Origin: an uncultured bacterium
Lineage (GTDB): Bacteria > Babelota > Babeliae > Babelales > Vermiphilaceae
DNA length: 64,000 nucleotides
Direction: 5' to 3'
NCBI GenBank assembly: GCA_963702025.1
Contig: OY969699.1
Coordinates: 1,376,001 to 1,440,000 of the forward strand
A model generated the notes under the pieces. That model was not told the origin of the DNA. It ran no database searches and saw nothing but the letters and a program-made list of their open reading frames with translations. The translations under genes were made by a program, and so were the position numbers. Below, one piece after another: positions 6,601 to 29,996 of this stretch; positions within the stretch are counted from its first letter, which is position 1, and each line of letters begins with the position of its first letter.

Positions 6601-9600
6601 TCGCCTTAAAGCTTTGTGTTTTTCGTGCGTCAACTACAACGTATTTGGCTTGCGTTGTGCCGATAAAATCTGCCCGTGGAATAAATTGATACGACCCATC
6701 GGGGTTGATGGTTAATGAACCATCAACAGAATCATCAACTTTTTGGAAATAATAGGGTGGCTGGCCCCCTTGTATAAACGCTTTTAATGATCCAGTTAAT
6801 TGTTCGCCCTGAGAAATAGTTAATTTCGCATTGCGCGCTCGTGGCTTTTCATTAACCGTTATAAAGAGCGTTCCCCATTTGCTTATTGATCCTTTAGAAT
6901 CGATAGCAACATAATTACATTTTATTCTACCGATAAAATCAAAATGTGGTTTACAATAATATGAACCATCCTCAAGTATCACAACAGGATTTTCTCTCGC
7001 ATCATTCACTTTTTCAAAAATATAAGGCGGATTGCCCCCGTCAACCAGATCCTGTAAAGATCCTGATACCTCTTGACCTTGGCAAACTTCAAATGCAACG
7101 TTATGTGCCCGTGGTCGTTCATTGACCGTTATTGAAACATGACCGGTTTTACTTAATGACTTTTTAATGTCAGTGACTTCATAAGTGAATTTAGTATCGC
7201 CAACAAAATCTTGCCCCGGCACAAATTGATAGGTACCACATGGATCAATTGTTAATGTCCCAACTTTTGGTTCACCCACCTTTTGGAAAATGTATGGCGG
7301 ATAGCCACCGGTCACCAGTGGGGTAAGCGAGCCCGTTAATGCATTTCCTTGAGCAATTTCTTGCTCACAAGAGATAATACGTGGTTTTTCATTAACCGTA
7401 ACTGCGACTCTACCGGCCACACTTTTTGTACCTTTTGCATCGATCACCAGATATTTAAATTCGGTTTCACCTACAAAATCATCATGCGGCACAAATTCAT
7501 ATGAACCGTCAGAATTTATAGTTAATGATCCATTTTCAATATCGTCTATTTTTTTGAATGTGTAGGGAGGATTACCACCACTTACTAATTTCTGTAATGA
7601 TCCGCATAATTTTTCTCCTTGAGCAACACCTTGCACAACTTTTGACGCACGCGGCTTTTCATTAACAGTAATAAAACACGTGCCGGAATTACTCTTGGTT
7701 CCATGAACATCTTTTACGCCGTATTTAAAGCTGAACTCTCCAAGGAAATCTTGCTGTGGTGTGCAAATAAATGTTCCATCGTCATTGATTAAAATGAGCG
7801 CGTTCTTATTGTTTTGATCGATTTCAAAGGTATAAGGAGCAATGCCGCCGGATAATGATTCACGCAGGGAACCTGCAATGATATCTCCTTGACCAATCGT
7901 AAAGGATAAATCAGAAACTTTCGGTTCTTCTTTAACAATTATTTCAAGCGTGCCGGTCATCTTCGATTGCTGAGAATCTACAATGCTCATAGGTACCTTT
8001 ACGATGCCAACAAAATTAGATGGGGGCATCAAAAGGCATGACCCATCTTGATTAATTTTTATATCACCATTTTCAACAGGCCCCGCAAGTTCAAAATGAT
8101 ATGGCGAACGATCTTGGGCAATCAAAGGCACTAAGCTACCTTCAAATGGCTTACCTTTTAGTGTCCAAAGATTTTCCGGAGCACAGCATGGCGTCTGATG
8201 AACGGTAATGGTTGCGGTGATTGGATCACTTATTCCTTTATGACTATCGGTAATAGTATACTGCATCCGAGCCTCGCCCTTAAATTGGTCTGCAGGCGTA
8301 AAAAGAAATGAACCATTTTTATTAAGCTCTATCTGGCCACCTTCTATGCCAATAAGATTAAATTCAAATGGCGGCTCTCCAATAATAGTAGTATTCTTCA
8401 AATCGGCATTTAGTGTTGTGGCGTACCCCGTTTCAAAATGAACACCATCAGACTCAGGACGGCGGTGAATTATGATTTCCATAGTACTTATGGTGCTGCA
8501 ATTGGTTACTTCATCAGTTACTTCAACAACCATTTTACCTTTACCATAAGGGATTAATGGCTTAAAGACAAATGAATTATCCGCATACACTATCACGTCA
8601 CCATGTTCGCACGATAATACTTTAACACGATAATTGCCCGAAGCACCCTGCGCTTGCAAATAACTGTATATCGGATCTAAGCCAACGGTTTGCCATACCT
8701 GATTCTTCAACTGTGGATGTTGATCAATATGAAGTACAATCGGAGCTGACTGCACATTAACATTACCATTTTTGTATGTCTCTACGGCCATTATTTGGCG
8801 ATAACCACTTTTAAGAGCAGGCAAGGTATAACTCCATTCACCATTTATCGCATTTGAAACCGTACCACCAACGTAATTACCGTCAACAAGAATGTGAACA
8901 AATGCCTTATTTTGAGCCATTCCCTTAAGCAAAATAGCGCTACCGTTAATAAAACGGCTGCTATCATCGGGACAAATTATCATTGGTGACTGCAATTGGC
9001 CCCCGCGGCAGGCATAACGAGCGAGTGCAAATGCCGGGCGTATATTTGCCAATGTTCTACCCGCTGCAATTATAGTACCATCCTGATGTATTCCCATGCC
9101 GAATATTTCGTCTTCCACACTATTATTAAACTTCGTTCGCACGGTGCCTACAACCGTATCGTTACTGTCGCTAAAAGAACTATCCAAGGCTCCGTTATCA
9201 TCATAGCGAGCAATAGCAAACATCGATTTATCATTTAGCATTGTGCTGCCACCTGCTACTATTTTTCCATCAGCCTGGAGCACAAGCGCGTTAACATGCC
9301 CACCATTCTCTTGTGATCCGAAACTGGTTATAACCGTACCGGGAATCGTTGCCAGCCCATTTCCCCCAAAACTTTGATCAAGTAAACCACATTGATCATA
9401 CCGTGCAAGCGCAAAGCGGCTTTTTCTAGCAAAATTATTACTATCGCTATAGCCACCAACTACAATTTTTCCATCCGGTTGTATAACCAAAGCATTGGCA
9501 CCACATTCTCTTTCTCCCGATCCAAATACTGTCAAAACAACCCCATGCACACGGGAATGAGCCACATCATACAATGAATTATCTAATTTTCCGTCCGGCA

Positions 9601-10393
9601 TATAACGCGCAAGTGCGCATGTCTTGTAACCCAAAGCATATGATGAACCGGCAATAACAATTTTGCCATCAGGTTGTATAGCAATCGCATTCGCCCTATC
9701 ATCTTGGAGTGCTCCCTTGCCTAAGCTCATGCAGAGAGTGCCCGGAATAGAATCAACACCGGATTCATTAAAGCTTGAGTCTAATGATCCATCTTGACTA
9801 TAACGTCCAAGCGCAACAAATACAGAATCGCGTACTGCAACAAATCCTGCTGCTACAATTTTGCCATCGGATTGCAACGCCATCCCATTTATCTGACTTG
9901 CTTTTTCATCTTTATAAAAAGCTGTTATTACTGTACCCGGGATAATCCCTCTATCGCCAAAAAATGATTCATCCAATGAACCATCTACATTGTAACGGGC
10001 AAGGCACCAACGAAACGTATCACGAATAACATTAGTAAAGCCTCCGGCAAGTATTTTGCCATCGGGCTGTATTACTATTGCATGAGCACCGCTTATTTTT
10101 TCTCCGGCACCAAATTTAGTAGTAACTAAACCGCCGTTACCAAATGTTTCATCAAGGGAACCGTCAACATTAAAACGTGCTACCGCAAAACGATTATGAC
10201 CATCAATAGTGCTGTAACCGGCAACAACAGCCTTACCATCGGCTTGAACAGCCATCGCTTTAGCCGTTGAACTTTGGCCCGCAATCACGGTATCGGCAGC
10301 ATGAAATACTTTAGCAAGACTTCCATCACTAATGGCCCATACTGCCTGTGTAACTAATAAAAAACAATAAACAATCTTTCCAAAGCTTTTCAT
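3602..10393 (-). CDS. 2263-aa secreted adhesin-like protein: 7 delta-60 repeats (beta-propeller), an Ig linker and ~19 tandem Ig-like repeats
   Basis: Signal peptide; seven Q.DGKI..AG / ARY..DG.LD.SF repeats; then ~90-aa GSL...GG.PPY.F...DG.Y.F.P...F.G repeats. Confidence 0.9.
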   Translation of the reverse strand: MKSFGKIVYCFLLVTQAVWAISDGSLAKVFHAADTVIAGQSSTAKAMAVQADGKAVVAGYSTIDGHNRFAVARFNVDGSLDETFGNGGLVTTKFGAGEKISGAHAIVIQPDGKILAGGFTNVIRDTFRWCLARYNVDGSLDESFFGDRGIIPGTVITAFYKDEKASQINGMALQSDGKIVAAGFVAVRDSVFVALGRYSQDGSLDSSFNESGVDSIPGTLCMSLGKGALQDDRANAIAIQPDGKIVIAGSSYALGYKTCALARYMPDGKLDNSLYDVAHSRVHGVVLTVFGSGERECGANALVIQPDGKIVVGGYSDSNNFARKSRFALARYDQCGLLDQSFGGNGLATIPGTVITSFGSQENGGHVNALVLQADGKIVAGGSTMLNDKSMFAIARYDDNGALDSSFSDSNDTVVGTVRTKFNNSVEDEIFGMGIHQDGTIIAAGRTLANIRPAFALARYACRGGQLQSPMIICPDDSSRFINGSAILLKGMAQNKAFVHILVDGNYVGGTVSNAINGEWSYTLPALKSGYRQIMAVETYKNGNVNVQSAPIVLHIDQHPQLKNQVWQTVGLDPIYSYLQAQGASGNYRVKVLSCEHGDVIVYADNSFVFKPLIPYGKGKMVVEVTDEVTNCSTISTMEIIIHRRPESDGVHFETGYATTLNADLKNTTIIGEPPFEFNLIGIEGGQIELNKNGSFLFTPADQFKGEARMQYTITDSHKGISDPITATITVHQTPCCAPENLWTLKGKPFEGSLVPLIAQDRSPYHFELAGPVENGDIKINQDGSCLLMPPSNFVGIVKVPMSIVDSQQSKMTGTLEIIVKEEPKVSDLSFTIGQGDIIAGSLRESLSGGIAPYTFEIDQNNKNALILINDDGTFICTPQQDFLGEFSFKYGVKDVHGTKSNSGTCFITVNEKPRASKVVQGVAQGEKLCGSLQKLVSGGNPPYTFKKIDDIENGSLTINSDGSYEFVPHDDFVGETEFKYLVIDAKGTKSVAGRVAVTVNEKPRIISCEQEIAQGNALTGSLTPLVTGGYPPYIFQKVGEPKVGTLTIDPCGTYQFVPGQDFVGDTKFTYEVTDIKKSLSKTGHVSITVNERPRAHNVAFEVCQGQEVSGSLQDLVDGGNPPYIFEKVNDARENPVVILEDGSYYCKPHFDFIGRIKCNYVAIDSKGSISKWGTLFITVNEKPRARNAKLTISQGEQLTGSLKAFIQGGQPPYYFQKVDDSVDGSLTINPDGSYQFIPRADFIGTTQAKYVVVDARKTQSFKATIWITVNEKPQANSIEHEILQGDALMGSLTPFVMGGNPPYIFEKAEEPKEGSLIMSPCGFYQFIPAAHFAGKTKFNYNITDIAKSISKNAQVNVTVHERPQIKNLELNIGKGQQLSGSLQKLAAGGCPPYTFMKVNDSKEYPFIIHEDGSYQCMPDSDFVGTAECSYMVIDAKKSKSMQGSITITVYECPRVKDIKLEVVQGKDLAGSLAMFVTGGNPPYAFEKKGDGKDGFFISADGSYRFSCNPSFVGTITCRYVAIDAKKHKSAEGEICITVNEKPSLINFEQEIAQGQALVGSLTPLVMGGNPPYIFQKTDEPKDGNLIINPCGTYQFVPAQNFAGKTTFNCNVTDIKNSVSKASQVTVVVHEKPRVSSEKVEMMRGQELSGSLVALVDGGHKPYIFEKAGDPENGSLVINPDGTYHFIPNPEFTGKAFCRYAVIDAKKAKSLEGVLEITVHEKLHTIPAQLIVAQGEKLSGSLNKLIQAGQQPFTFQKIGDPENGSLEIKTDGSYEFTPHEDFVGTTEFKYSAVDAKKIMSAEGAVAITVLEKPRLMILEQEISQGNALVGSLTPFVMGGYPPYNFQKVGEPKNGTLTIDPCGSYQFVPADNFVGMAHFDYQVTDMKKLTSKIGEVSVAVIERPCANNVNYEVCQGQEVSGSLQDMVDGGTPPYVFEKVNDARENPVVINEDGSYHCKSSSNFAGRIKCNYVAIDSKGSRSKRGTIFITVNEKPRAHDKEVSISQGEQLTGSLKGLIKGGQPPYTFQKISDCGEGSLTINPDGSYQFSPHKDFVGTTIAKYIAIDARKLKSAEGALVITVHEKPHVMNGEQEISQGQMLVGSLTPSVLGGYPPYSFQKMGEPKDGTLFMNPCGTYQFMPATNFVGKTAFNYNVTDMKKSVSKTGQVQVTVHGRPQVSDTQLKVPKGSEVIGSLLEMITGGNPPYTFEKVGNSVNGSKISISQDGIYHFGPDMQFVGEAAINYVAIDAKKAQSLPGKLSISVDVK

Positions 10394-10417: not shown

Positions 10418-11287
10418 CTATCGTAAAATTTCAGACTTAGGATATTCAACAAACGTAACCATAACCTCTGCGCTGGATGTATTACCGAGGGCATCTTGTA
10501 TGGTATACATAAAATTATCTTCACCAATAAAATCCTGCGTCTGCATATAGGTTATAGAATTATCATCATTAATCTTCACCGAGCCACGAGCAGGCTGGGA
10601 GACCTCTACTATTTCTACCGGCAAATCAGATATGTCATTGCATATTACCGGGATAGTTAGAGGAAGCCCTTGAATGCCAACTGCATGATCCGGATTCGCT
10701 CTCAGTAGATTAGGAGAAGCCTGCGTTTCCATTGCAAAAAAGGAAGGAGGGTTGGTGGCAATAAATGTTGTATATTTTTTTGTTCCTTCTTTGGTTGCCC
10801 TAAAAGTAATCGCTAATTTTTGAATAGAATTGGCAGGTAACCCTTTTTTAAAACTCCACTTGGTTTTACCACCTTTGCGTAATATCGATGATGCTTTTAG
10901 ATCATATTCGCCGGTTGTCGGCGCCGTAGAACTAATATATTCAACACCATTGCCACCATCTTGAGAAGGATCAGGAATTAGATCTGCCCAAAATGGAATA
11001 TTGCTTGCCCGCATCGATTGTACCGTAAAATAGATAGTAAATTCTTGGCCCAGAACTACCTGACTGGGCGCCGTAATACCAAATGTCACAGTATTGTACG
11101 GATATGCCGGAGTAAAAACAGAGAGACCATCTTGCACCTGGGCATCTTGTGATTGGACAACATCAAACTCATGGACAATCTCAATTTTATTGTTTTGTTC
11201 ATTATAAATAACATTTATGCCTACGGCATAAAATTGCATAAGAAACAGCGAAACCACTAGTGTTTTGAAAGCATTATTTATCATCAT
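10418..11287 (-). CDS. Secreted DUF11-like plus C-terminal Big_9/cadherin-like domain protein
   Basis: Likely start MMINNAFKTLVVSLFLMQ (the ORF track extends to 11377). APSQVVLGQEFTIYFTV...DLIP...GVEYISS resembles DUF11; ANPD...IPVICND...G.D.F.YTIQD..G resembles Big_9. Confidence 0.75.
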   Translation of the reverse strand: MMINNAFKTLVVSLFLMQFYAVGINVIYNEQNNKIEIVHEFDVVQSQDAQVQDGLSVFTPAYPYNTVTFGITAPSQVVLGQEFTIYFTVQSMRASNIPFWADLIPDPSQDGGNGVEYISSTAPTTGEYDLKASSILRKGGKTKWSFKKGLPANSIQKLAITFRATKEGTKKYTTFIATNPPSFFAMETQASPNLLRANPDHAVGIQGLPLTIPVICNDISDLPVEIVEVSQPARGSVKINDDNSITYMQTQDFIGEDNFMYTIQDALGNTSSAEVMVTFVEYPKSEILR

Positions 11288-11483
11288 TTTTTTGCCCTTT
11301 TGAAAATAAATGTGAGGATTAAAAAATCTATACCTTACATCGTCACACTTAGTCAATACCAGACTTAAATATTCCATTTTTTTATACTATGCGGGGTTCT
11401 ACGAAGTCAAGAAACAAAACATCTTTACAAGTTCCTCCGAAAAATACTACCTTTCAAAAGTGACAAAATTAGAAGGAGAAACA

Positions 11484-13280: not shown

Positions 13281-14270
13281 CTATTTTGACAATGCAAATT
13301 CATTTGAAAAAAATTTTGAATAAAAAAGATCAAGACTATACGTTATTTCCACACTACTTTTAGAAATAAGATCAAGTTCATATATATATTGATGAGCGTT
13401 TTTAAACTCAGTCAATGAACTTCTTTTCCAATCTTTTTGTAAAAAAGTAAACGGTAACCGGAAACTCATGCTTTTTGCTGCAGCAAAATTTTTTTGATTA
13501 AGATAAAACCATACAAAATAAGCGCGCCACAGTTGCTCACTCCAAAAAACCGACCAAAACGTAAGGGGATATTCCAATTGATACTGTTGCCACGCCTTGA
13601 AAAATGCACGCGAATCCTTGGCAAAAAAATGTTGACTTATAGCAAACAAGGATGTCTCGGGAACAATAATTTTCTCCAAAAAAGAAATTGTTTGCTCATT
13701 ACAGCCAGCTACTTTCATATATTCCGTAATCATACAGACAGCATCAACCGACATTTTTTTATATCGCTGACCTAGTTGTTTAAAAAGCAATACCGATTGA
13801 TTACTATTTTTTTTCTTGTCGAGAGTAAACAATTGTTCAAAAAGCTTTACATCAACTTCTTCAGGAATATTAATTATTTCTTCCTGCAGTAGATTTTTTT
13901 TATCTTGCTCGGACACAAATAAAATTACCCTATGTGGGCCTTGGTATTTAGTAAGGTAGTGCAAAAAACGATCGCGAATTTTTTTATCAACTTGATCAAA
14001 CCCTCTGAACCAGTAAATTAAGCCGCTTCCTAAAAAACTCATTTCAAGCTGTGATATAACTTCATCGAGCGGAATTGCTTCTATATTACCTGTTTGAATT
14101 TGACAACCATCGGATTGCAAGCGAGAAAAAAACCGCGATGCAAAAAGAATCGGCATTTCTTGTGTATAGGAGAAAATAAAATGTTTTTTTACACCATTCT
14201 CATGCGCTTTGAGAGTATAGTGATCAAGAAATTCATGTAGTTGCATTAACTCGTTAACCCACGTTAACAA
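13281..14270 (-). CDS. Putative divergent DNA polymerase III delta subunit (HolA-like)
   Basis: ~320 aa; MSFLG followed by a beta-strand, ETSLFAISQHFF and YELDLISKS resemble HolA; start uncertain. Confidence 0.5.
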   Translation of the reverse strand: MLTWVNELMQLHEFLDHYTLKAHENGVKKHFIFSYTQEMPILFASRFFSRLQSDGCQIQTGNIEAIPLDEVISQLEMSFLGSGLIYWFRGFDQVDKKIRDRFLHYLTKYQGPHRVILFVSEQDKKNLLQEEIINIPEEVDVKLFEQLFTLDKKKNSNQSVLLFKQLGQRYKKMSVDAVCMITEYMKVAGCNEQTISFLEKIIVPETSLFAISQHFFAKDSRAFFKAWQQYQLEYPLTFWSVFWSEQLWRAYFVWFYLNQKNFAAAKSMSFRLPFTFLQKDWKRSSLTEFKNAHQYIYELDLISKSSVEITYSLDLFYSKFFSNEFALSK

Positions 14271-15075
14271 AACGATTTTTAAGAGAAAATAATGAAGAAC
14301 GATCAGTTTTCATGGTAACAGGATTCTGGTTTTTTTGCACGCAATCTCTGGATGCAAAAGAGAGATCAATGATAGAAAAAAGTTTATTGCTTCCCTGAAT
14401 TGCCAATTCTTTCAGCTGCTCGAATTCGGACCACGACAAGGGGTTTTTTTCAGCCGTTCCTTGAATTTCAATAACAGCATTAGACTTTGTTAAAACAAAA
14501 TTATAATCCGCATCAATAGCATTGTCTTCATTAAAATCAAGATCAATAAAGGGCTTATTGTCTTTGATGCCCACCGAAACAGCAACAATTGTGTCGGTTA
14601 AAATGCTCGTGGAAAGTTGCCCAGATGCAAGCCACGTTTCAACCGCCATTTGCAAAGCAATGCAAGAACCGGTGATAGCTGCCGTGCGTGTGCTGCCATC
14701 AGCTTGTAAAACATCACAATCAACATTAATAGTACGCTCATTAAGAGTGGAAAGATCAACGATTGCCCGTAATGACCTGCCTATTAAACGTGAAATCTCT
14801 ATAGAACGTTCATTTCTTTTTGCTTGACTGCTTTCGCGTACCGAACGAGCAATACCTGAATTGGGCAACATGGCATAATCAGCAGTAAGCCATCCGGTCT
14901 TTGTTCCTTTTAAGAATGGTGGAACCCCCGGTGTCATACTTACTGAGCAAAGAACCTTGGTATTGCCCAGTTCAAATAATACTGAACCGGGCGCATAACC
15001 AAAAGAATTGTAGCTAATTTTAATCTCACGCAATTGATCAAAAGATCTTCCTGCATTTCTGCTAAAGTGATCCAT
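14254..15075 (-). CDS. rph: Ribonuclease PH
   Basis: GSVLFELGNTKVLC, GWLTADYAMLP, EISRLIGRSLR, DCDVLQADGSTRTAAITG and IEIQGTAE motifs; likely start MDHFSR. Confidence 0.95.
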   Translation of the reverse strand: MDHFSRNAGRSFDQLREIKISYNSFGYAPGSVLFELGNTKVLCSVSMTPGVPPFLKGTKTGWLTADYAMLPNSGIARSVRESSQAKRNERSIEISRLIGRSLRAIVDLSTLNERTINVDCDVLQADGSTRTAAITGSCIALQMAVETWLASGQLSTSILTDTIVAVSVGIKDNKPFIDLDFNEDNAIDADYNFVLTKSNAVIEIQGTAEKNPLSWSEFEQLKELAIQGSNKLFSIIDLSFASRDCVQKNQNPVTMKTDRSSLFSLKNRFVNVG

Positions 15076-15082
15076 GAGACTG

Positions 15083-17173
15083 TTACTTTTCAATCAAACG
15101 TAAACGAACGCGACCAGTGCTTTCATCATATTCAAGCACTTCAACGGTAACAACATCATCCACTTTATAGTCACGCAAGAATGTTCGTTGCTTATCGCGC
15201 GGAATATTAGAGACGTGCACTAATCCGTCAAGACCAGGAACAAGTTCAACAAAAAGACCAAATTCAGCAAGCCGTTTTATTTTACCGGTATATCGAGTGC
15301 CCGGTTCAATTTGACCGCCGAGAGTTTTAACCCAATTAATCGCCATTTCCATATCAGCACCCGGCGCACCAAAAATTTTAACCAAACCGGTCTCATCAAT
15401 ATCAATGCTCGTATTGGTCTTGGCAATAATTTCACGAATCACTTTGCCACCGGTGCCAATAATAGCACCAATTTTATCAGAATTAACTTTGACGGTTACC
15501 AATTTAGGTACCAACGGTGATAACTCAGGAGCCGGCTCACGCATTACTTTTTGCATTTCACCTAAAATATGGAGGCGGCCACTTTTTGCTTGTGCAAGAG
15601 CTGCATCAAAAACATTTCGTTCGAGCCCACCTTTATACTTAATATCCATCTGGATAGCAGTAATACCATTTTGGGTTCCGGCAACTTTGAAATCCATTAA
15701 ACCGAATTCATCCTCAAATCCTGAAATATCAGAAAGAACGGTAAATTTGCCTTGTAAGCTTTTTAAAAGGCCCATTGCAATGCCGCTCACCATTTTCTTA
15801 ATGGGAACGCCAGCTTGCATAAGCGCCATCGTTGAACCACACACGGTTGCCATTGAGGTTGAGCCGTCAGATTCAAGAATATCCGCAACGATACGAATGG
15901 TATATGGAAAATCTTTATTGGCAGGCAATACTTTTCTAATTGCCGATGCTGCTAAATGACCATGACCAACTTCACGTCTTCCCGGACCGCGCATTGGGCG
16001 AACTTCGCCAACAGAAAACGGTGGAAAGTTATAATGCAACATAAATGAACCATCAGCTTCATGATCCATAATACCTTCAATTTTTTGTTCATCATCACCG
16101 CCACCAAGCGTTGCCGTTACCAGCGCTTGGGTTCTTCCGCGCGTAAAAAGAGCAGAACCGTGGGTGAATGGAAGTAATCCTACTTCTGTTGAGATATGAC
16201 GAACTTGATCAAACGCACGGTCATCAATACGTTTGCCACGTGAAAAAATAAGTTCGGTTAATTTCACTTGCAGTACTTTATCAAGAATATAATCAATCAC
16301 TCTTGCTGTTTCAGTTGATTCAGCTATCTGTTCTTTATAAAGCTGATTAAATGCCTCTTGAATCTTATCAAGCTGCTCGTTACGCTGAACTTTATCCGGA
16401 ACATTAACCGTTTTAACTAAATCTTCCGTTAAGAAAGAATCTACGCGGTCTTTCCAGATTTTCCAGCCATATTTATCTGCAATCTCTTCTTTGGCCGCGC
16501 CAACTTCGCGCTGTATTTCTTTCTGCCATGCAACCAATTTTTTAATGTAATCATGTGCCATAAAAAGCACATCAATAAGCTCTTGCTCACCAATCTCAGC
16601 CGTCGATCCTTCAACCATGCAAATACCTTCATCGGTACCAGCAACTACCACTCGGGAATCAGCTTTTATTGCATCGGAGAATAAGGGATTGGCTACCCAT
16701 TTGCCATCCAAACGAATCATTTCTACCGCACCAATAGGACCCATAAAAGGAATTTTGGAGAGCGTAAGTGCAATAGAGCTTGCTATGATACTAATTACGT
16801 TCGGCGCATGTTCTTTATCAACAGAAAATACTGTTGCAATAATTTGTAATTGCTCAAAATATTCAGCAGGAAATAAAGGTCGTATACCACGATCTATTAA
16901 ACGGCTGGTAAGCACTTCCTTATCAGTAGACTTACCTTCTCTCTTAAAATAACCACCAGGAATTTTACCCGCAGCCGAAAACTGCTCGCGGTAGTCTACC
17001 GTTAATGGTAAAAATCCAGGAAAATCTTTAGATGGCGATGAAACTGCCGTGGCAAGAACAACGGTCCCACCGTGCGTAAACCACGCAGCGCCATCGGCTT
17101 GACGCGCGAATTTACCTATTTCTACTTCATAACCGAATTCCGGAAAACTAAATTTTTTTACCATTATTATCAA
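15083..17173 (-). CDS. pnp: Polyribonucleotide nucleotidyltransferase (PNPase)
   Basis: FLPLTVDYRE, AGKIPGGYFKREG, FMLHYNFPPFSVGE, MDFKVAGT; C-terminal KH and S1 domains. Confidence 0.98.
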   Translation of the reverse strand: MIIMVKKFSFPEFGYEVEIGKFARQADGAAWFTHGGTVVLATAVSSPSKDFPGFLPLTVDYREQFSAAGKIPGGYFKREGKSTDKEVLTSRLIDRGIRPLFPAEYFEQLQIIATVFSVDKEHAPNVISIIASSIALTLSKIPFMGPIGAVEMIRLDGKWVANPLFSDAIKADSRVVVAGTDEGICMVEGSTAEIGEQELIDVLFMAHDYIKKLVAWQKEIQREVGAAKEEIADKYGWKIWKDRVDSFLTEDLVKTVNVPDKVQRNEQLDKIQEAFNQLYKEQIAESTETARVIDYILDKVLQVKLTELIFSRGKRIDDRAFDQVRHISTEVGLLPFTHGSALFTRGRTQALVTATLGGGDDEQKIEGIMDHEADGSFMLHYNFPPFSVGEVRPMRGPGRREVGHGHLAASAIRKVLPANKDFPYTIRIVADILESDGSTSMATVCGSTMALMQAGVPIKKMVSGIAMGLLKSLQGKFTVLSDISGFEDEFGLMDFKVAGTQNGITAIQMDIKYKGGLERNVFDAALAQAKSGRLHILGEMQKVMREPAPELSPLVPKLVTVKVNSDKIGAIIGTGGKVIREIIAKTNTSIDIDETGLVKIFGAPGADMEMAINWVKTLGGQIEPGTRYTGKIKRLAEFGLFVELVPGLDGLVHVSNIPRDKQRTFLRDYKVDDVVTVEVLEYDESTGRVRLRLIEK

Positions 17174-17202: not shown

Positions 17203-17472
17203 CTACTTACGCAGTCCCAATCGGCTTACGATCTCTTTATACTGGGTAGCATCTTCTTTGTGTAAATATGCCAAGAATTTTCTTCTTTTGGCAACTGCTT
17301 GTAAAAGGCCTCTTTTTGAGGACACATCTTTAGGGTTTTTTTCCAAATGTTCTGCAATCTGTTTGATTCGTTCAGTTAAAAGAGCAATCTGGACAGATGT
17401 TGATCCGGTATCATTTCCTGCAATACCAAAATCTTTGATGATTTTTTCTTTGTTACTTTTAACAAGTGACAT
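17203..17472 (-). CDS. rpsO: 30S ribosomal protein S15
   Basis: DTGSTSVQIALLTERI...SKRGLL...LGLRK. Confidence 0.98.
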   Translation of the reverse strand: MSLVKSNKEKIIKDFGIAGNDTGSTSVQIALLTERIKQIAEHLEKNPKDVSSKRGLLQAVAKRRKFLAYLHKEDATQYKEIVSRLGLRK

Positions 17473-17516
17473 ATTTTATAAAACCTCATGGGTTATGTGT
17501 TTGTATCATTTCTATA

Positions 17517-17591
17517 TGGTAGGCGCGAGCGGGATTGAACCGCTGGCCCTTGCTACGTCAAAGCAATGCTCTACCACTGAGCTACGCGCCT
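17517..17591 (-). tRNA. tRNA-Val(GAC)
   Basis: AGGCGCG/CGCGCCT acceptor stem, TAGCTCAGTGGTAGAGC D-arm, TTGCT-TTGACGT-AGCAA anticodon arm, GGTTCAATCC T-loop, encoded CCA. Confidence 0.95.
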
Positions 17592-20500
17592 TCTTGTTCT
17601 TTATACTGTCTATTCTCTTCCCTCTCATGCATCTCTTCATGCTGCGCCTGACGCTCAAGGTCTGAAACATCATCACCTAAATAGCGCTTTCTAAAAGAAG
17701 CAATCCCCGTACCTGCAGGTATCAATTTACCAACAATTACATTTTCCTTCAAACCATATAAATGATCTACTGCACCGGAAATAGCTGCTTCTGAAAGAAT
17801 TCGGGTAGTTTCTTGGAAAGATGCTGCTGAAATAAAGCTCTCGGTTCCTAAAGAAGCCTGCGTTAGTCCCATCAAAATAGGTTTTGCAGTAGCAGCACGT
17901 TTATTTTCTGCTTTTACCAGAGAATTGACCATTTTAAAGTGAACACGGTCAACGCGGTCACCAATCAAGAAATCAGTATCTCCCGGATCAACAATACGCA
18001 CCTTACGTAACATCTGGCGCACAATCAATTCAATATGACGGTCATTAATTATAATACCCTGCAAGCTGTAAATTTGCTGAATTTGATCAACAAGATAACG
18101 CTGAACCATTTCAGGCCCCATAATGCGTAAAATATCATGGAGAACTGGAGAACCGGATGTCAAAGGATCTCCGGCAGTTACTTTCTCGCCATTGACCACG
18201 TTTACCTGTTTGCCGCGAGGAATAAAATAATCAATTGACTGATCCCCGTTGGCAATGGTAATTTTTCTCAAACCTCGATGCAAGCCACCGAATATAACCT
18301 CGCCATCGATATCTGCAATAATTGCAGGATCTTTTGGCATACGCGCTTCAAAGAGTTCAGCAATACGTGGCAGGCCACCAGTAATATCCCCAACCCTCGA
18401 TGCTTCACGGGGCACCTTAACAAGGATGTCGCCAACCTGTACTTCTTGGTGATCACTAACCAAAAGATAGGCTCCCGATGGCAAATAGTAGAGCGCCTCT
18501 TCGTTGCCATTTTCATCTTCAATGGCAATGGCAGGCTGATATTTTTCACTTTTATGCTCAAGAATCATATAGGTTGATTTATTTGTTTTTTCATCAAACC
18601 GTTCTTGAACAGTAACGTTTTCAACTAAATCAATAAATTTAATGCGACCCGCTTTTTCAGTCAGCAAGACTTTACTTGTTGGATCCCATTCGGCCAATTT
18701 TTGACCAATAACTATTGGTTGTTTATCATTTACCAGAAGTGTCGAACCATATTCTAAATCATGATGTCGTAATTCGCGACCATCCGGGGAAACTATAAAA
18801 ACACGGGCCTTTCGGCTCATCACAATAGCCTGACCATGACGATTTCTCACTGTACGAACACCGCGCCACTCAACGATACCCTCATGTTTAGCAACATAAA
18901 ATGGCTGTTGAGACATACCACTTGCCGTACCACCTATGTGGAACGTTCTCATAGTCAACTGTGTTCCCGGTTCACCAATCGATTGCGCCGCAATTACACC
19001 AACCGTTGTTCCAACATCAACGAGCGAGCCTTTTGATAGATCGTACCCGTAACATTGCGCACAAATACCCCGTTTTGCTTGGCAGGTTAATGCCGAACGA
19101 ACCATTATAGATGTTGCAGCGGAATCGGCAAGGCGAGAAATATCTTCTCTGCTGAGCAAATGCCCTTGTTTGAAAATTAATTCACCTGATACTGGATCCT
19201 TAACATCACTGGCCAAGACTCTTCCCAACACGCGATTGTTTAATGGTGAAATTACGTCACCCGATCCTTTGAGATCTCCAATCTCGATATAGCCGAGCGT
19301 TTGACAATCATCCATTGAAATCACAACATCTTGAGCTACGTCAACTAAACGACGCGTTAAATATCCTGAGTTTGCCGTTTTCAATGCTGTATCTGCTTGA
19401 CCTTTACGAGCACCGTGAGTAGAAATAAAGTATTCAAAAACGCTCAAACCGTCTTTAAAGTTACTCTTAACCGGCGTTTCCATAATCTCACCACTCGGAC
19501 GGGACATCAATCCCCGCATTCCGGTGAGCTGCTTAATTTGATCTTTTGAACCACGCGCACCTGATTCGAGCATCATGAATATTGGATTAAACGGTTTAAA
19601 GTCACGTTTTTCATTTAAAAAGGCTTCTTGGTCTTGCTTTTCCAAGGTTTTTGTCATTTCTGAAGCAACATCATCGGTAGCATGTTCCCAAATACTCAAC
19701 ACTTTATTATGACGCTCACCATTAGTGATTACGCCATCCATATATAAATCTTCTATACGCTGAACTTCTTTATCGGCCTTCTTGACCAATTCATGTTTTT
19801 GCGCAGGAACAATAAGATCACGCAATGAACAAGAAATGCCACTTACGGTTGAGTAGTAGAATCCAAGTTTTTTTATCTTATCTAATGCTTCAACGGCGGA
19901 CTTACTGCCAAACCGATAATAAATGCGCTCAACCAAACGGGTCAAATCACTTTTTTTCATTATCTTGTTTAACCAGTTAAAATCGGTGCCGCTTGGCAAT
20001 CCCTCAAATAGGATAACTCTTCCAACTGTTGTCTGAGTAATCTCTTTAGTGTCCCCCATGCGCACACCAATTTTTGCGTGGAGAGAAACTTGTTCACACT
20101 GAAAGGCAGTTATAACTTCACCAATATTGGAAAAAGTGAGACCTTCGCCTTTGGCACCCAGTCGAACTTTGGTCATATAGTGCAATCCAAGAACCATATC
20201 TTGGGATGGCACAGTAACCGGACGCCCATTAGCCGGAGAAAGTATATTATTTGTGGCAAGAATCATGGTTTTTGATTCTTCTTGTGCCTTTTTGCTCAAC
20301 GGAATGTGGACAGCCATTTGGTCACCGTCAAAGTCTGCGTTGAATGCTGCGCAAACCATCGGATGTATTTTTATCGCTTTGCCATCTACCAAAATCGGGT
20401 AAAACGCTTGTATACCCAAACGATGTAGGGTTGGTGCACGATTAAGGAGCAATGGACGATCTTTTACCACTTCTTCAAGAACATCCCAAACTTCCGGCGC

Positions 20501-21721
20501 TAATTCTTCAACCATTCTTTTGGCCACCCGTAAGTTAGGTGCTATTTCGCGTTCAATGAGACCTGCAAAAATGTACGGCTTGAATAGTTCAAGTGCCATA
20601 ATTTTAGGTAAACCACAGCGGTCCATTTTAAGTTCCGGGTCAACGACAATTACCGAACGCCCGGAATAGTCAACACGACGTCCCAGCAAGTTCTGACGGA
20701 ATCGTCCTTGTTTACCACGAAGCATTTCACTCAAAGATTTAAGCGCTCGTTTGTTTGAGCCACGCACCGGCTGGCCGCGACGCCCATTATCAATAAGCGC
20801 GTCAACCGATTCTTGAAGCATTCTTTTTTCATTTTTGATAATAACTGAGGGAGCTTCTATCTCGAGTAATCGTTGCAAACGAATATTTCTATTCAATACT
20901 CTGCGATACAATTCATTTAAATCGGAGCTCGCAAAACGGCCACCTTCAAGAGGAACCAACGGACGCAAGTCAGGTGGTAATACCGGCAAAATCGCAAGAA
21001 TCATCCATTCAGGTCTCATATTGCCATGCAGCAATCCTGAGAACACTTTAATGCGACGCATAATTTTATGACGAATAGCAACTGATGTTGTGTGCCGATA
21101 CTCTTCTTCTAAATTCGCAATCTCTAGTTTTAAATCTACCATGCTTAAGATATCGCGAATCGCTTCAGCACCAGATCCGGCAGCAAAATCTAAGTCTTCC
21201 GGATGAGTATCGAGATAGTTCTCGTATTCGGTATTATTCAAAATAGTTTTTCGAGGGTATGGAGAACGGCCTTGGTGAATTACAATATAGGCATCAAAGT
21301 AAATGACGCGCTCCAAATCCTTAACCGGAAGATCCAGCAACAACCCCAAGTAACTTGGAATTCCTTTAAGGTACCAAATATGGCATACCGGAGAAACAAG
21401 TTCAATATGCCCCATTCGCTCACGGCGCACACGAGATTGGATAACTTCTACGCCACACTTTTCGCAGGTCACACCGCGATGTTTCATTCTCTTATACTTA
21501 CCGCAGTTACATTCCCAATCTTTTTGCGGACCAAAGATTCTTGCGCAAAAAAGGCCGTCCCTTTCAGGTTTCAACGTACGATAGTTAATTGTTTCAATCT
21601 TCTTCACTTCACCATAGGAAAGTGATCGAATCTTTTCAGCAGAAGCAAGACCAATCTTTAATGCATTAAACTGCGTTAAATTAACATATTCTCTAAAGCG
21701 ATCTAAAATCCGATTATTCAC
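17582..21721 (-). CDS. rpoC: RNA polymerase beta' subunit
   Basis: ETINYRTLKPERDGLFC, N-terminal Zn finger, NADFDGDQM active site, SAASFQET. Confidence 0.99.
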   Translation of the reverse strand: MNNRILDRFREYVNLTQFNALKIGLASAEKIRSLSYGEVKKIETINYRTLKPERDGLFCARIFGPQKDWECNCGKYKRMKHRGVTCEKCGVEVIQSRVRRERMGHIELVSPVCHIWYLKGIPSYLGLLLDLPVKDLERVIYFDAYIVIHQGRSPYPRKTILNNTEYENYLDTHPEDLDFAAGSGAEAIRDILSMVDLKLEIANLEEEYRHTTSVAIRHKIMRRIKVFSGLLHGNMRPEWMILAILPVLPPDLRPLVPLEGGRFASSDLNELYRRVLNRNIRLQRLLEIEAPSVIIKNEKRMLQESVDALIDNGRRGQPVRGSNKRALKSLSEMLRGKQGRFRQNLLGRRVDYSGRSVIVVDPELKMDRCGLPKIMALELFKPYIFAGLIEREIAPNLRVAKRMVEELAPEVWDVLEEVVKDRPLLLNRAPTLHRLGIQAFYPILVDGKAIKIHPMVCAAFNADFDGDQMAVHIPLSKKAQEESKTMILATNNILSPANGRPVTVPSQDMVLGLHYMTKVRLGAKGEGLTFSNIGEVITAFQCEQVSLHAKIGVRMGDTKEITQTTVGRVILFEGLPSGTDFNWLNKIMKKSDLTRLVERIYYRFGSKSAVEALDKIKKLGFYYSTVSGISCSLRDLIVPAQKHELVKKADKEVQRIEDLYMDGVITNGERHNKVLSIWEHATDDVASEMTKTLEKQDQEAFLNEKRDFKPFNPIFMMLESGARGSKDQIKQLTGMRGLMSRPSGEIMETPVKSNFKDGLSVFEYFISTHGARKGQADTALKTANSGYLTRRLVDVAQDVVISMDDCQTLGYIEIGDLKGSGDVISPLNNRVLGRVLASDVKDPVSGELIFKQGHLLSREDISRLADSAATSIMVRSALTCQAKRGICAQCYGYDLSKGSLVDVGTTVGVIAAQSIGEPGTQLTMRTFHIGGTASGMSQQPFYVAKHEGIVEWRGVRTVRNRHGQAIVMSRKARVFIVSPDGRELRHHDLEYGSTLLVNDKQPIVIGQKLAEWDPTSKVLLTEKAGRIKFIDLVENVTVQERFDEKTNKSTYMILEHKSEKYQPAIAIEDENGNEEALYYLPSGAYLLVSDHQEVQVGDILVKVPREASRVGDITGGLPRIAELFEARMPKDPAIIADIDGEVIFGGLHRGLRKITIANGDQSIDYFIPRGKQVNVVNGEKVTAGDPLTSGSPVLHDILRIMGPEMVQRYLVDQIQQIYSLQGIIINDRHIELIVRQMLRKVRIVDPGDTDFLIGDRVDRVHFKMVNSLVKAENKRAATAKPILMGLTQASLGTESFISAASFQETTRILSEAAISGAVDHLYGLKENVIVGKLIPAGTGIASFRKRYLGDDVSDLERQAQHEEMHEREENRQYKEQEGA

Positions 21722-24700
21722 TTGCTTTCTCCTTGCCGCTCTTAAACAAATCCACTTGTAATCCTAAGCTTTGCAACTCTTTGATGAGTACGTTAAATGA
21801 TTCAGGCACGCCTGACTCAGGTACATCCTCACCGCGAACAATCGCTTCATACACCTTATGTCTTCCAGTTACATCATCTGATTTATAGGTTAGCATCTCT
21901 TGCAAGGTATATGCGGCGCCATACGCTTCGAGAGCCCATACTTCCATTTCTCCTAGACGCTGGCCGCCTAATTGCGCTTTACCGCCAAGTGGCTGCTGGG
22001 TTACTAATGAGTATGGCCCAACAGAACGCGCGTGCACCTTGTCATCAACCATGTGATTCAATTTCATCATATAAATGGAACCCACGGTCACCGGCTGTTC
22101 AAAGTATTCTCCGGTGCGTCCATCACGCAATCTAAATGCGCCGACGTCTGGCAACTGTAACTCTTCAAGAAGAGGTTTTATATCACTGTCATATTGTGCC
22201 CCATCAAATACCGGTGTTTTATATTGCACACCGCATTGTGAGGTTTTACGCGCAAGTTCGGACAACCCTTGCTTGCCATAGGCTTTTTCATAAGACTCAA
22301 CGAGTTCTGCGCCATAGACATTTTTTAAATATTTTTTAATTTCTGGGTAGCCTTGATTATTCATCAACTCTTCAAGCTTGTTACCCAACTCCTTGCCTGC
22401 CAAACCTAAAGCAGTTTCAAGAATTTGCCCCACGTTCATACGAGATGGAACACCCAGCGGATTTAAAACAATATCAACGGGTCTGCCATCATCCAGATAT
22501 GGCATATCTTCACGAGGAACAATAGTTGAAACAACACCTTTATTTCCGTGACGACCAGCAAGTTTGTCGCCAACCGATATGGTACGCTTCATGGCAATAT
22601 AGACTTTAACCATTTTAATGACACCGGATGCCAAGATGTCACCTTTTTTTAATTTGTTAATTCGTTCTTCTTTCAAGACTGCCAAGATACGAATTTGGTT
22701 TTCGTAAGAATCCTTAAGACGTACAAGATTTTCATTGAGCTCTTTATCTGCTACTTTAACAGCAAATAACTCGCTGACAGGCTTGCTTAAAATCTTCTCT
22801 TTATCAAAAACTCCACCAGTAGTTAACGATTTTGAAACGGTAGCCGCTGCTTTTTGCCCGGCCAAACGGCTCGCAATAGATTCAACAGTCATTTTCTCTA
22901 AAAAGCGAAGATGATCAGCAAAATCAGCATCAACTTTTGCAACCTGTTTGGTAATTTCGTCTTTATAGCGTTTATCTTTCCGCACGCCGCTTCGTGAAAA
23001 GATTTTAACGTCAACCACAGTACCTTCAATACCAGGCGGCACGCGCAATGATGTATCGCGCACTTCACGTGACTTCTCACCGAAAATAGCACGAAGAAGC
23101 TTTTCTTCAGGAGAGTATTGAATATCTCCCTTAAGCGTAACTTTACCAACTAAAATATCACCGGGTTTTACACGTGTTCCGATGCGAACAATGCCATCTT
23201 CATCCAGACCAGCCAATGCAGTTTCACTCACATTAGGAATATCCCGGGTAATCTCTTCAGGACCTAGTTTAGTGTCCCGTGCATCCACCTTATATTCATC
23301 GATATGAACCGACGTTAATGAGTCATCGGAAACCAGCCGCTTATTTAATACGATGGCATCCTCAAAATTATATCCGTGCCATGGCATAAACGCGACAGTT
23401 AAATTAGTACCAAGAGCCAATTCACCATCTTTTATGGAAGAACCGTTGGTTAAAATATCACCCGCATTCACATAATCGCCTCGGTTTACGATCGGCGTAT
23501 GGTGAATCCATGTGCTATGACTTGAACGCTGGAATTTTCTTAAATGATAGGTATCTATTGCCTGTGAAAGCCATTCATCAACGTTTTTAAACTGTGATTC
23601 TTCAGCTCGAATCATAATTTTTTCTGACGACACATATTCAACAGTTCCTGCTCGCTTTGCAACTATCACGCCACCGGAAGCTTTTACAATCTCTCTTTCC
23701 ATTCCGGTTCCCACCAGAGTGTTCTGAGGATTGATAAGCGGTACCGCTTGACGTTGCATGTTTGCTCCCATCAAGGCACGACTTGCGTCATCATGCTCCA
23801 AAAATGGGATAAGTGCCGCTGAAACAGAAACAAGCTGCTTAGGAGACAAATCAATATAGTTTATTTTATCAGCATCAACAAATAAGAAGTTGCCCTGATT
23901 ACGAGCAAATACCCTCTGATTATCAAGCTTTGTATCAGTTGCTTCATCCGGTTGCGCAATAAACTGATCTTGTTCTTCAAATGCATCCAAGAACACAACT
24001 TCTTCTTTAATTTTTCCATCTTGAACAGGTCTATATCCAGTTTCTATAAATCCAAGATCGTTAACCATTGCATAGGTAGCAAGGGATGAAATAAGACCAA
24101 TCGTTTGACCTTCAGGAGTTTCAATCGGACAAATACGACCGTAGTGAGACGTATGCACGTCACGAATTTCGGTCGTTGCACGATCTTTAAGAACACCACC
24201 GGGCCCGAGTGCGGACAATCGTCTTTTATGAGCAACCTCGGAGAGAGGATTTGTTTGATCCATAAACTGAGAAAGTTGACCCAACCCAAAGAATTCACGC
24301 AGCACAACACTGAGTGGTTTTACATTGAGGAAGTCTTGTGGCATTAAAGCGCCATGCGGTTCTTGCATTCTGAAACGTTCGCGAATAATTCGTTCGATAC
24401 GTAAAAATCCAAGATAGACCTGATTTGTTAAAAGCTCTCCAACCAAACGAACGCGGCGGTTTCCCAAATGATCAATATCATCAAGTTCACCTTCTCCACG
24501 CTCACGCAATCCAACCAGATAACGAATGGTAGCAATTAAATCTTCTTTGGTGAGTACCGTTTTTTCTTCGGAAACTGAAAGCCCTAACTTTCTGTTCATG
24601 CGAATACGGCCAACCTTGGTCAGGTCATAGAAACGGCTGTTGAAGAAAAGATCTTCAAAGCGTTGTTTAATCTCGTGCAATGAGGAGGTATCGCCCGGAA

Positions 24701-26033
24701 ATAATTTTGCATGTATTTCCTTAAGCGCATCTTCTTCACTCATGCAGCGATCTTGTGTAAGTGTCATAGCAATTGTTGGCTGAAATACGTAGCCGGAAGA
24801 TTGAATGAGATCAAACTCAAGATTTTTAAATTTCTTAAATAGCTCATACGTATCTTCGGTAAATGTTTGACCCTGAGCAACAAGAATTTCTCCGGTATCC
24901 TGATCAATAACATCTTTTGCAAAAACACGATTTAAAAGAGCTGATTTTCGTAGTGAAAGCTTATCTATTCCCAATTTTGCAAGTCGAGATAAGATATCTT
25001 TGGTAACCCTGTTGCCAAGAAACGCTTTTTCTTCTTTTTCCGGGAGCATGCCTTTTTCAATACGCTGTCCCATAAGCGTTGCATCAACTTTTCGGAAAAA
25101 CTCGCCGTTGCGAATGCTTACATTTTCGAAATTATAAAAAAGAGAAACAATATTTTCACGCGCGAATCCTAAGGCTTGCAAAAATGTTGTTATGAGTATT
25201 TTCTTCTTTTTATCGATACGTACATAACAATAATCATTCGTATCAAACTCAAAATCCAACCATGAGCCACGCATAGGAATTATACGGGCCAAATAGTAGG
25301 CACGTCCGCGTAAATCTTTTACTTTTTTACTTTGGGAAAAAACAACACCCGGTGAACGATGTAGCTGACTCACAATAACCCGATCAACACCGTTGATCAG
25401 GAATGTACCAATATTTCCTAATAAAAAGCGACCATTTTCTTCATATAAGTCTGCCATAACCGGAACATCGGCAAAGAAAATATCTTGTTCTTTAATATCA
25501 TGAACAACTTTTTTATTGTCGGCATCAAGGGACCAGCTAATAAGTTGAATCTTAACTTTCAACGGCATTGAAAACGTTTGCTCGCTTGATCGACACTCTT
25601 CAAGAGTCATTGGTAATTTAACAACAACTCGCGACAAACAATTTGAACAGGTTTTATAGCGCGCTGTCTTCTTTTTGCAGAATCGACACGTGAAATCTGC
25701 ATCAAGTCGAGAGCAGTCTGATTTTTTACATGCCGTGCAAGTCCATTGATAGCGATTTTCTATCCCGGTTAGTTTACCACATGTGCATGCCCAAAGACCA
25801 AGCTCATAACTGACATATTCAAGAGACATCTTGTCATTATAGTCTATCGGAAAAACATCTCTTAAAACTTTTTCAAGTCCAATCAACTTTCTTTCACTTG
25901 GCAGAAAATCTAATTGCGCAAATTCATTAAAAGAATTAGATTGAATTTCAATCAAGTTGGGTACTGGGGCAATATCTTTGATCTTACCAAAAGATCGACG
26001 GATATTGTTTTTGCTCATGTGCAACTTAGTCAT
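21714..26033 (-). CDS. rpoB: RNA polymerase beta subunit with an N-terminal Cys-rich insertion
   Basis: SQFMDQTNPL, HYGRICPIETPEG, GDKLAGRHGNKG, GGQRLGEME; likely start at 26033, after a GAGGAG RBS. Confidence 0.99.
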   Translation of the reverse strand: MTKLHMSKNNIRRSFGKIKDIAPVPNLIEIQSNSFNEFAQLDFLPSERKLIGLEKVLRDVFPIDYNDKMSLEYVSYELGLWACTCGKLTGIENRYQWTCTACKKSDCSRLDADFTCRFCKKKTARYKTCSNCLSRVVVKLPMTLEECRSSEQTFSMPLKVKIQLISWSLDADNKKVVHDIKEQDIFFADVPVMADLYEENGRFLLGNIGTFLINGVDRVIVSQLHRSPGVVFSQSKKVKDLRGRAYYLARIIPMRGSWLDFEFDTNDYCYVRIDKKKKILITTFLQALGFARENIVSLFYNFENVSIRNGEFFRKVDATLMGQRIEKGMLPEKEEKAFLGNRVTKDILSRLAKLGIDKLSLRKSALLNRVFAKDVIDQDTGEILVAQGQTFTEDTYELFKKFKNLEFDLIQSSGYVFQPTIAMTLTQDRCMSEEDALKEIHAKLFPGDTSSLHEIKQRFEDLFFNSRFYDLTKVGRIRMNRKLGLSVSEEKTVLTKEDLIATIRYLVGLRERGEGELDDIDHLGNRRVRLVGELLTNQVYLGFLRIERIIRERFRMQEPHGALMPQDFLNVKPLSVVLREFFGLGQLSQFMDQTNPLSEVAHKRRLSALGPGGVLKDRATTEIRDVHTSHYGRICPIETPEGQTIGLISSLATYAMVNDLGFIETGYRPVQDGKIKEEVVFLDAFEEQDQFIAQPDEATDTKLDNQRVFARNQGNFLFVDADKINYIDLSPKQLVSVSAALIPFLEHDDASRALMGANMQRQAVPLINPQNTLVGTGMEREIVKASGGVIVAKRAGTVEYVSSEKIMIRAEESQFKNVDEWLSQAIDTYHLRKFQRSSHSTWIHHTPIVNRGDYVNAGDILTNGSSIKDGELALGTNLTVAFMPWHGYNFEDAIVLNKRLVSDDSLTSVHIDEYKVDARDTKLGPEEITRDIPNVSETALAGLDEDGIVRIGTRVKPGDILVGKVTLKGDIQYSPEEKLLRAIFGEKSREVRDTSLRVPPGIEGTVVDVKIFSRSGVRKDKRYKDEITKQVAKVDADFADHLRFLEKMTVESIASRLAGQKAAATVSKSLTTGGVFDKEKILSKPVSELFAVKVADKELNENLVRLKDSYENQIRILAVLKEERINKLKKGDILASGVIKMVKVYIAMKRTISVGDKLAGRHGNKGVVSTIVPREDMPYLDDGRPVDIVLNPLGVPSRMNVGQILETALGLAGKELGNKLEELMNNQGYPEIKKYLKNVYGAELVESYEKAYGKQGLSELARKTSQCGVQYKTPVFDGAQYDSDIKPLLEELQLPDVGAFRLRDGRTGEYFEQPVTVGSIYMMKLNHMVDDKVHARSVGPYSLVTQQPLGGKAQLGGQRLGEMEVWALEAYGAAYTLQEMLTYKSDDVTGRHKVYEAIVRGEDVPESGVPESFNVLIKELQSLGLQVDLFKSGKEKASE

Positions 26034-26054
26034 TAAGTCGCTCCTCATTAAAAT

Positions 26055-29432: not shown

Positions 29433-29508
29433 TGGAGCCCGCGACCGGGATTGAACCGGTGACCTCTCCCTTACCAAGGAAGTGCTCTACCAACTGAGCT
29501 ACGTGGGC
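29433..29508 (-). tRNA. tRNA-Thr(GGT)
   Basis: GCCCACGTAGCTCAGTTGGTAGAGC...CTTCC-TTGGTAA-GGGAG...GGTTCAATCC...TCCA. Confidence 0.96.
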
Positions 29509-29651
29509 AAAACTTACTTCTTCTTTTTAACTTTAACGTCAAGGATAGAGTAAAAAACTTAAAATGACAACTTATTTTATCGTAAAACTGCAACGAAGTT
29601 GCTAATAATTTAGTCCATCTTCGCCAACTTGCGCTGAGAACGGGCGAAGAT

Positions 29652-29727
29652 TGGAGCTGGCGACTGGACTTGAACCAGTGACCTGCTGATTACAAATCAG
29701 CTGCTCTACCAACTGAGCTACGCCAGC
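29652..29727 (-). tRNA. tRNA-Thr(TGT)
   Basis: GCTGGCGTAGCTCAGTTGGTAGAGC...GCTGA-TTTGTAA-TCAGC...GGTTCAAGTCC...TCCA. Confidence 0.96.
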
Positions 29728-29920
29728 ATATATCAAATCTTAGGACAGTCTTCGCATCTTGCGCTTAAGCTTTATGATCATTCCTTATAGGTGATGTCGA
29801 AGCCAGGCCCCTTCGACCGGGTCAGGATAAACTCCGCAATTTTTAAGGAATTATCCTTAACTGGCCGCGCCAGGCGTAGCCGTGTTTATACTTCGAAGTC
29901 TAGCCCGCGTAGGCGAAGAC

Positions 29921-29996
29921 TGGAGCGGGAAACGGGAGTCGAACCCGTAACCTACAGCTTGGAAGGCTGCCACTCTACCAATTGAGCTATTCCCGC
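29921..29996 (-). tRNA. tRNA-Gly(TCC)
   Basis: GCGGGAATAGCTCAATTGGTAGAG...CAGCC-TTCCAA-GCTG...GGTTCGACTCC...TCCA. Confidence 0.96.

Follow-up and report, generated by a model that had tools for sequence, protein, structure and literature searches.

The rpoC–tRNA-Val(GAC) junction

The window, a 64,000-nt stretch of DNA from an uncultured bacterium whose closest named RpoC matches are Dependentiae/Babeliales (Babelota), carries on one strand the gene order nusG-rplK-rplA-rplJ-rplL-rpoB-rpoC-tRNA-rpsO-pnp-rph. Members of the phylum Dependentiae are described as strictly intracellular in protists (PMC12172432). On the minus strand, rpoB (21714..26048, preceded by rplK, rplA, rplJ and rplL) lies 5' of rpoC (17582..21721), which encodes the 1379-residue RNA polymerase beta' subunit (TIGR02386, 1658 bits, above cut-off). 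A tRNA-Val(GAC) gene with an encoded CCA follows on the same strand (17517..17591); it was found by ARAGORN and matches Rfam RF00005 over its full length, at 67.2 bits against a cut-off of 29. Further downstream, still on the minus strand, are an A/T-rich 44-nt spacer (17473..17516, from the tRNA CCA to rpsO) without a terminator-like site, rpsO for ribosomal protein S15 (17203..17472), pnp for polynucleotide phosphorylase (15083..17173) and rph for RNase PH (14254..15093). No terminator-like site was seen between rpoC and rpsO in the window.

rpoC and the tRNA gene have 10 nt in common (17582..17591, minus strand). The 3' end of rpoC reads GAA-GGC-GCG-TAG and the protein ends in ...YKEQEGA, so that in rpoC terms the overlap comprises the last base of the Glu codon, the Gly and Ala codons and the TAG stop. 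In tRNA terms it comprises acceptor nucleotides 1-7 followed by TAG at nucleotides 8-10, the rpoC stop being U8-A9-G10 of the tRNA (17582..17584, minus strand). A stop inside tRNA-Val had been proposed in the initial annotation, and the open reading frame, ARAGORN and Rfam coordinates agree on it. tRNA-Val(GAC) is present as a single copy in this genome, and it is the only one of 38 tRNA genes that a long upstream frame (at least 100 codons) enters. All features of the class of same-strand CDS/tRNA overlaps that can be tested on DNA are present: a recognised coding sequence, a valid downstream tRNA, a stop 3' of tRNA +1, and RNase P.

The part of rpoC that reaches into the tRNA is poorly conserved. 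The TIGR02386 match stops at residue 1344, 35 residues short of the C-terminus, and the last ~35 residues form a variable, acidic tail. In non-overlapping relatives the tail past the last conserved motif is 4-45 aa long, the shortest ones being found in frameshifted assemblies. Because the tail varies in length and sequence and the model ends before the C-terminus, the position of the rpoC stop is loosely constrained. Folding of the junction with its flanks gave no excess over shuffled sequences (z = -0.27), a result that is uninformative since energy folding missed the cloverleaf.

An assembly error could conceal an earlier rpoC stop, as the initial annotation had cautioned, and frameshifts are present here in some related assemblies. 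Contigs from two other sequencing runs, which may be from the window's own sample, show 0 differences over 17382-17606 and 17494-17644, and a related contig with 96 substitutions in 1501 nt crosses the junction with no indel and no new stop nearby. The overlap is also common to 27 other species. With independent contigs, same-genus relatives and the wider set of species all showing it, we consider this explanation refuted and give it practically no weight.

Distribution across the phylum

Among 261 species genomes of the phylum, the junction was matched in 232, obtained from 231 and scored in 229; G193 was not fetched, G080 has no rpoC in the stretch obtained, and G087 is cut before the tRNA, while the score for G238 comes from inspecting a contig end by eye. 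Seven genomes with an upstream stop look frameshifted and were kept as scored (G013, G017, G045, G064, G137, G234 and G241), and G013 may hide an overlap. The locus itself is nearly universal, being matched in 186 of 189 near-complete genomes. In all 229 scored genomes rpoC is followed by tRNA-Val(GAC) on the same strand. The next gene is rpsO in 222 of 228, at a median spacer of about 50 nt. At 26 more distant loci drawn from RpoC matches, no tRNA was found behind rpoC.

The position of the stop is much more variable. In 192 of the 229 genomes it lies upstream of the tRNA, with a median gap of 14 nt; its distance to tRNA +1 is -10 in 28 genomes, -2 in six, and -1, -21 and -39 in one each, the -39 case being one that may reflect an assembly slip. 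The 28 genomes with the 10-nt overlap are spread over 17 genera and six families; the first ten tRNA bases are unchanged in them, and 25 of 27 have an encoded CCA. Conservation in related genomes, which the initial annotation had singled out as informative, holds at short range: of five relatives in the same genus in which the locus is present, four show exactly this overlap (5/6 counting the window's own genome). Same-genus G002 has an in-frame TAA 8 nt upstream of the tRNA, and the TAG of the tRNA is still in frame beyond it. Over the phylum as a whole the arrangement is conserved in only 28 of 229 species, with reversions, and in this it departs from a programmed non-stop message. The further suggestion of the initial annotation, that beta' synthesis is coupled to tRNA processing by a dedicated link, finds no support here, given that 192 of 229 species stop upstream and that the state flips in close kin.

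Two further observations concern this set of genomes. Two members of one genus in family f3 (G026 and G079) have an additional tRNA-Val(GAC), nearly identical to the first, on a different contig. The 192 upstream stops include one at 0-3 nt before the tRNA, 22 at a distance of 4-7 nt and 54 at one of 8-11 nt; the paucity of stops at 0-3 nt possibly reflects a shortest permissible tail once RNase P has cut.

Origins, reading frames and depth of overlap

Parsimony was applied to a FastTree phylogeny built from 460 RpoC residues, in which many nodes are weak, some assemblies are frameshifted and four short rows were omitted. With gains and losses costed equally it gives 14 gains and two losses of the 10-nt overlap; other cost settings give 8-16 gains. 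The overlap clusters phylogenetically, needing 16 steps where shuffled data need 26.8 on average and 22 at least, and it flips between close kin. These many origins, the occasional losses and the patchy spread argue against a one-off read-through and equally against a fixed device of the whole phylum. Once acquired, it is retained in five of six genomes of the window's genus and in six of eight in family f5, in agreement with the chance of 0.72-0.82 that 3-5 free codons contain no stop.

The first stop that a reading frame meets in the tRNA is, in one frame, at +10 in 207 of 228 genomes and otherwise at +1; in a second frame it is at +21, at +39 or missing (all but four genomes); and in the third it is at +2 if a T precedes the tRNA (110 genomes), and otherwise at +35 or missing. 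Because +10 is the first stop of its frame in so many genomes, repeated arrival there is expected. Upstream stops are split about evenly over the three frames (63, 55 and 74), yet read-ins past +2 number 28 in the +10 frame, two in the +21/+39 frame and none in the frame that has no stop before +35. In terms of origins, the +10 class holds 14 of 16 where a share of 0.36 would be expected (binomial p = 3e-5), and 8 of 10 at the lowest origin count (p = 0.006). The -2 class, with about five origins when the tree is read by eye, is as frequent as expected. Deeper read-ins are thus much rarer than reading-frame use predicts, and since every overlap would give a non-stop message, the cost of overlapping appears to rise with depth. 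Such a cost appears to act through unfolding of the tRNA by a terminating ribosome or through a longer foreign peptide, two routes that the data do not separate; the former is an argument from the ribosome footprint.

Transcription of the tRNA

The initial annotation had placed a possible internal promoter within the 3' end of rpoC (17600..17628, minus strand), from which a near-leaderless tRNA-rpsO-pnp-rph transcript could evade the conflict between the rpoC stop and tRNA maturation. Its hexamers, ATGAGA and TATAAA, are indeed at that place and agree with the consensus at 9 of 12 positions. However, TATAAA lacks the T at position 6 of the -10 element, and the site was not reported by a sigma-70 scan (a -10 with A2 and T6, and a -35 at 16-18 nt). 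The pair occurs in no other overlap genome, the other 26 having unrelated hexamers. Within 72 nt before the tRNA, none of 27 overlap genomes has a promoter-like site, compared with 29 of 324 control windows inside rpoC, which is no enrichment and not a significant depletion. Genomes with long spacers are richer in such sites (20/87, against about 9% of controls), for which their A/T-rich spacers may account. In this genome a canonical TTGACA-16/18-TAnnnT does lie upstream of several t(m)RNA genes that stand alone, so the sigma-70 consensus applies to this organism. Even a real internal promoter would leave the conflict in place, as the rpoBC transcript needs the tRNA for its stop and would still contain a cleavable tRNA. 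The proposed promoter is not supported by these tests, and we regard it as very unlikely.

A crude hairpin-plus-T test for a terminator after the tRNA was positive in 8 of 222 spacers, and in 1 of 26 in overlap genomes. Two motifs associated with t(m)RNA genes of this genome were also seen. The sequence TTGAA[AT] occurs within 30 nt upstream of 15 of 40 t(m)RNA genes compared with 3.5% of random windows; in the window it lies upstream of the tRNA-Tyr at 30372. tRNA-Val(GAC) is not preceded by it, and of 27 overlap genomes 26 are likewise without it; 19 of 87 long-spacer genomes have it. This leader resembles the boxA antitermination motif. A G+C-rich hairpin repeat starts directly after the CCA of 30 of the 40 t(m)RNA genes, tRNA-Val(GAC) not being among them; in the window it is found within 29433-30372, after tRNA-Thr, -Thr, -Gly and -Tyr.

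Processing, rescue and decay machinery

Both components of RNase P are encoded in the genome (rnpB at 231 bits, rnpA above cut-off), as are smpB and two tmRNA genes. Given RNase P, tmRNA and SmpB, cleavage at tRNA +1 is predicted to yield a non-stop rpoC message, much as the initial annotation had reasoned. The genome also has two full-length release factors, ArfB (above cut-off), RNase E/G, RNase Y and two Lon genes. ArfB, which acts on peptidyl-tRNA at non-stop ends and needs no stop codon to hydrolyse it (PMC3985003), had gone unnoticed in the initial annotation; it would free beta' short of three tail residues, and may soften the cost of the overlap.

In this genome ClpX and the RqcH domain have no match above cut-off, the ClpP family has a marginal match only, and RNase R/II has no match. 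Phylum-wide, among 261 genomes ClpX was found in none, ClpP in one and the RNB domain (RNase R/II) in one, with controls positive in 10-11 of 14. This near-total absence of ClpX, ClpP and RNase R from the phylum had likewise been overlooked. Mycoplasma pneumoniae, which is also without ClpXP, is reported to direct its tagged proteins to Lon (PMC8403727), and by this precedent Lon is the likely degradation route here. The 30 tmRNA tags read in the family end in Phe-Ala or Tyr-Ala in 18 cases and in Ala-Ala in two. By analogy with Mycoplasma, tag degradation in the phylum has likely switched to Lon.

Each of the two tmRNA genes (G000:C1:192053-192477 and 182479-182838; L032 and L033) is complete and has a promoter-like site; they are separated by 9.6 kb. 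Translated in one common register, their tags are 31 and 9 residues long, respectively; for the second gene ARAGORN picked another frame. Of 80 genomes of the family, eight have two tmRNA copies, four of these eight being in the window's genus. We considered the second tmRNA as an enabler of the overlap and rejected it: G002, without the overlap, has two, and most overlap species have one.

Comparison with known systems

Overlaps of this class have been surveyed across bacteria by Hudson, Lau and Williams (2014). That survey listed 250 upstream coding sequences overlapping on the same strand among 115,660 bacterial t(m)RNA genes, as candidate non-stop mRNAs, with examples such as FtsW/RodA with tRNA-Ile(CAT) in Helicobacter and smpB-ssrA in Carsonella (PMC4131195). 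As at rpoC, the upstream stop lies within a same-strand RNA gene, a non-stop message is predicted, and the distribution is patchy in close relatives, for example in half of the Carsonella strains (PMC4131195). The top families of the survey represent few evolutionary events, whereas here a single junction shows 8-16 origins and a depth limit, and the host gene is rpoC, which is not named in the passages of the survey considered here (PMC4131195).

Other systems share parts of the arrangement. In Escherichia coli secG-leuU, an mRNA is followed by a tRNA and RNase P separates the two, as is predicted here; the unprocessed transcript lasts under 30 s, after which secG decays fast (PMC2241853). 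The passages of that report considered here describe no overlap of the secG stop with leuU, whereas at rpoC the cut would take the stop itself (PMC2241853). In plant mitochondria, t-elements of nad6 and ccmC are cut by PRORP1 and the stop-less transcripts are translated, so that, like here, an RNase P activity acts on a tRNA-like fold upstream of a stop; there, however, the element is no working tRNA, the enzyme is protein-only and translation has been demonstrated, whereas at rpoC a stop-less message is predicted from DNA (PMC12214727). The arfA gene of E. coli likewise has a nuclease site upstream of its stop that leads to trans-translation, but it relies on RNase III and its feedback logic is clear, whereas the rpoC overlap is missing from most species (PMC3985003, PMC4131195). 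In the literature searched, which took in few subscription journals and the survey outside its supplements, we found no published mention of an rpoC/tRNA-Val overlap, and an earlier listing is possible; nor did we find in it a test of the cost of CDS/tRNA overlaps. The class of overlap is already known, and what is new is rpoC as the host, the many origins and the apparent depth limit.

Interpretation of the overlap

Our preferred explanation, to which we assign a probability of roughly 0.6, is that the rpoC stop drifts within a dispensable tail at a very tight junction found throughout the phylum and is caught by the conserved TAG of the tRNA, the overlap being tolerated and not a selected switch. 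The sequence of events would be as follows. rpoBC and the tRNA are probably co-transcribed, and as long as the tRNA is attached, ribosomes would terminate at the TAG and briefly melt the 5' strand of the tRNA. The RNase P cut at +1 would then free the tRNA and leave a message ending in ...CAA-GA, which would encode beta' to ...YKEQ and have a two-base partial codon at its end. The cut message would quickly decay, like secG after leuU removal in E. coli. Ribosomes remaining on it would be released by one of two routes, ArfB giving a beta' that lacks only Glu-Gly-Ala and is probably functional, and tmRNA giving a tagged chain that is probably destroyed by Lon. On this account the cost would be small at overlaps of up to 10 nt and larger at 21 nt or more, either from tRNA unfolding or from the longer foreign peptide.

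Several points weigh against this drift-and-capture explanation. At the cutting speed known from E. coli, many ribosomes on the 4.1-kb gene would meet a non-stop end, and a large share of beta' would have to come via rescue, favouring a role for ArfB. A nearly free overlap is also hard to hold without ArfB, for which 3 of the 28 overlap genomes have no match. The clustering on the tree and the persistence on deep branches could be compatible with weak positive selection as well. Finally, the single stop of 192 at 0-3 nt, compared with 22 at 4-7 nt, is left unexplained.

One alternative is that RNase P cuts fast, that non-stop messages are the source of most beta', which ArfB releases three residues short, and that ArfB is what permits the overlap. 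The residues lost would fall in the non-conserved tail, nad6 and ccmC in plant mitochondria offer a precedent for translation from stop-less messages (PMC12214727), and four families without an ArfB match (f13, f6, f19 and f8) show no overlap. ArfB was found in 25 of 28 overlap genomes, including the window's, compared with 122 of 192 others (naive Fisher p = 0.005). The association is gone when genomes are taken by genus (p = 0.27) and within family f1 (14/16 vs 42/51), and independent pairs give a median p of 1, informative pairs being too few to reach significance. The three overlap genomes in which ArfB has no match are 96%, 93% and 80% complete. As the raw enrichment is lost once kinship is allowed for, ArfB is not supported as a requirement for the overlap, and we judge the dependence of rpoC expression on it to be unlikely. 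Selected feedback has been weighed beside it: slow translation would let the tRNA fold and RNase P cut, the rpoC message and nascent beta' would be destroyed (through tmRNA and Lon), and RNA polymerase supply would be coupled to ribosome activity. The exact same overlap has many independent origins and persists in several clades, ribosomal protein genes, pnp and rph are on the same transcript, and arfA is a known programmed non-stop message (PMC3985003). But the overlap is absent in 192 of 229 species, close relatives differ, reversions occur, and repeated arrival at +10 is what the reading frames predict. A tRNA 4-15 nt downstream could, moreover, time message decay without any overlap, and such feedback seems to us rather improbable.

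It is harder still to credit that tRNA-Val(GAC) is rarely matured from the rpoC transcript and nearly dispensable, with tRNA-Val(UAC) reading four codons. A U34 can read four codons by wobble, the genome has a second valine tRNA (TAC), and tRNA-Val(GAC) is without the TTGAA[AT] leader of other t(m)RNA genes; set against this are the near-universal locus, the unchanged first ten bases and encoded CCA in overlap genomes, and GTT being the commonest valine codon. Returning to tolerated drift, the junction can be seen as a replicated natural experiment, with one gene, one tRNA, 229 species and about a dozen independent arrivals at 10 nt, with hardly any at greater depth. Such a pattern suggests that even in a large essential gene the loss of the stop through maturation of a tRNA is tolerated, and that the depth of the overlap counts more than the non-stop end. 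A bolder idea, which we hold to be something of a long shot, is that in overlap lineages beta' comes routinely from a stop-less message, so that the split between ArfB and tmRNA with Lon, in cells that have no ClpXP or RNase R, would set the amount of RNA polymerase. If true, this would amount to a dial on RNA polymerase supply controlled by ribosome rescue, evolved about a dozen times.

Other open reading frames in the window

Apart from the rpoBC region, the window contains an open reading frame at 10418-11377 with a weak tandem-95 repeat match below cut-off, adjoining one at 3602-10393 (minus strand) that encodes 2263 aa. Two other very long frames run off the ends of the window, at 3-3584 (minus strand, open, over 1194 aa) and at 59201-64000 (plus strand, open, over 1600 aa).
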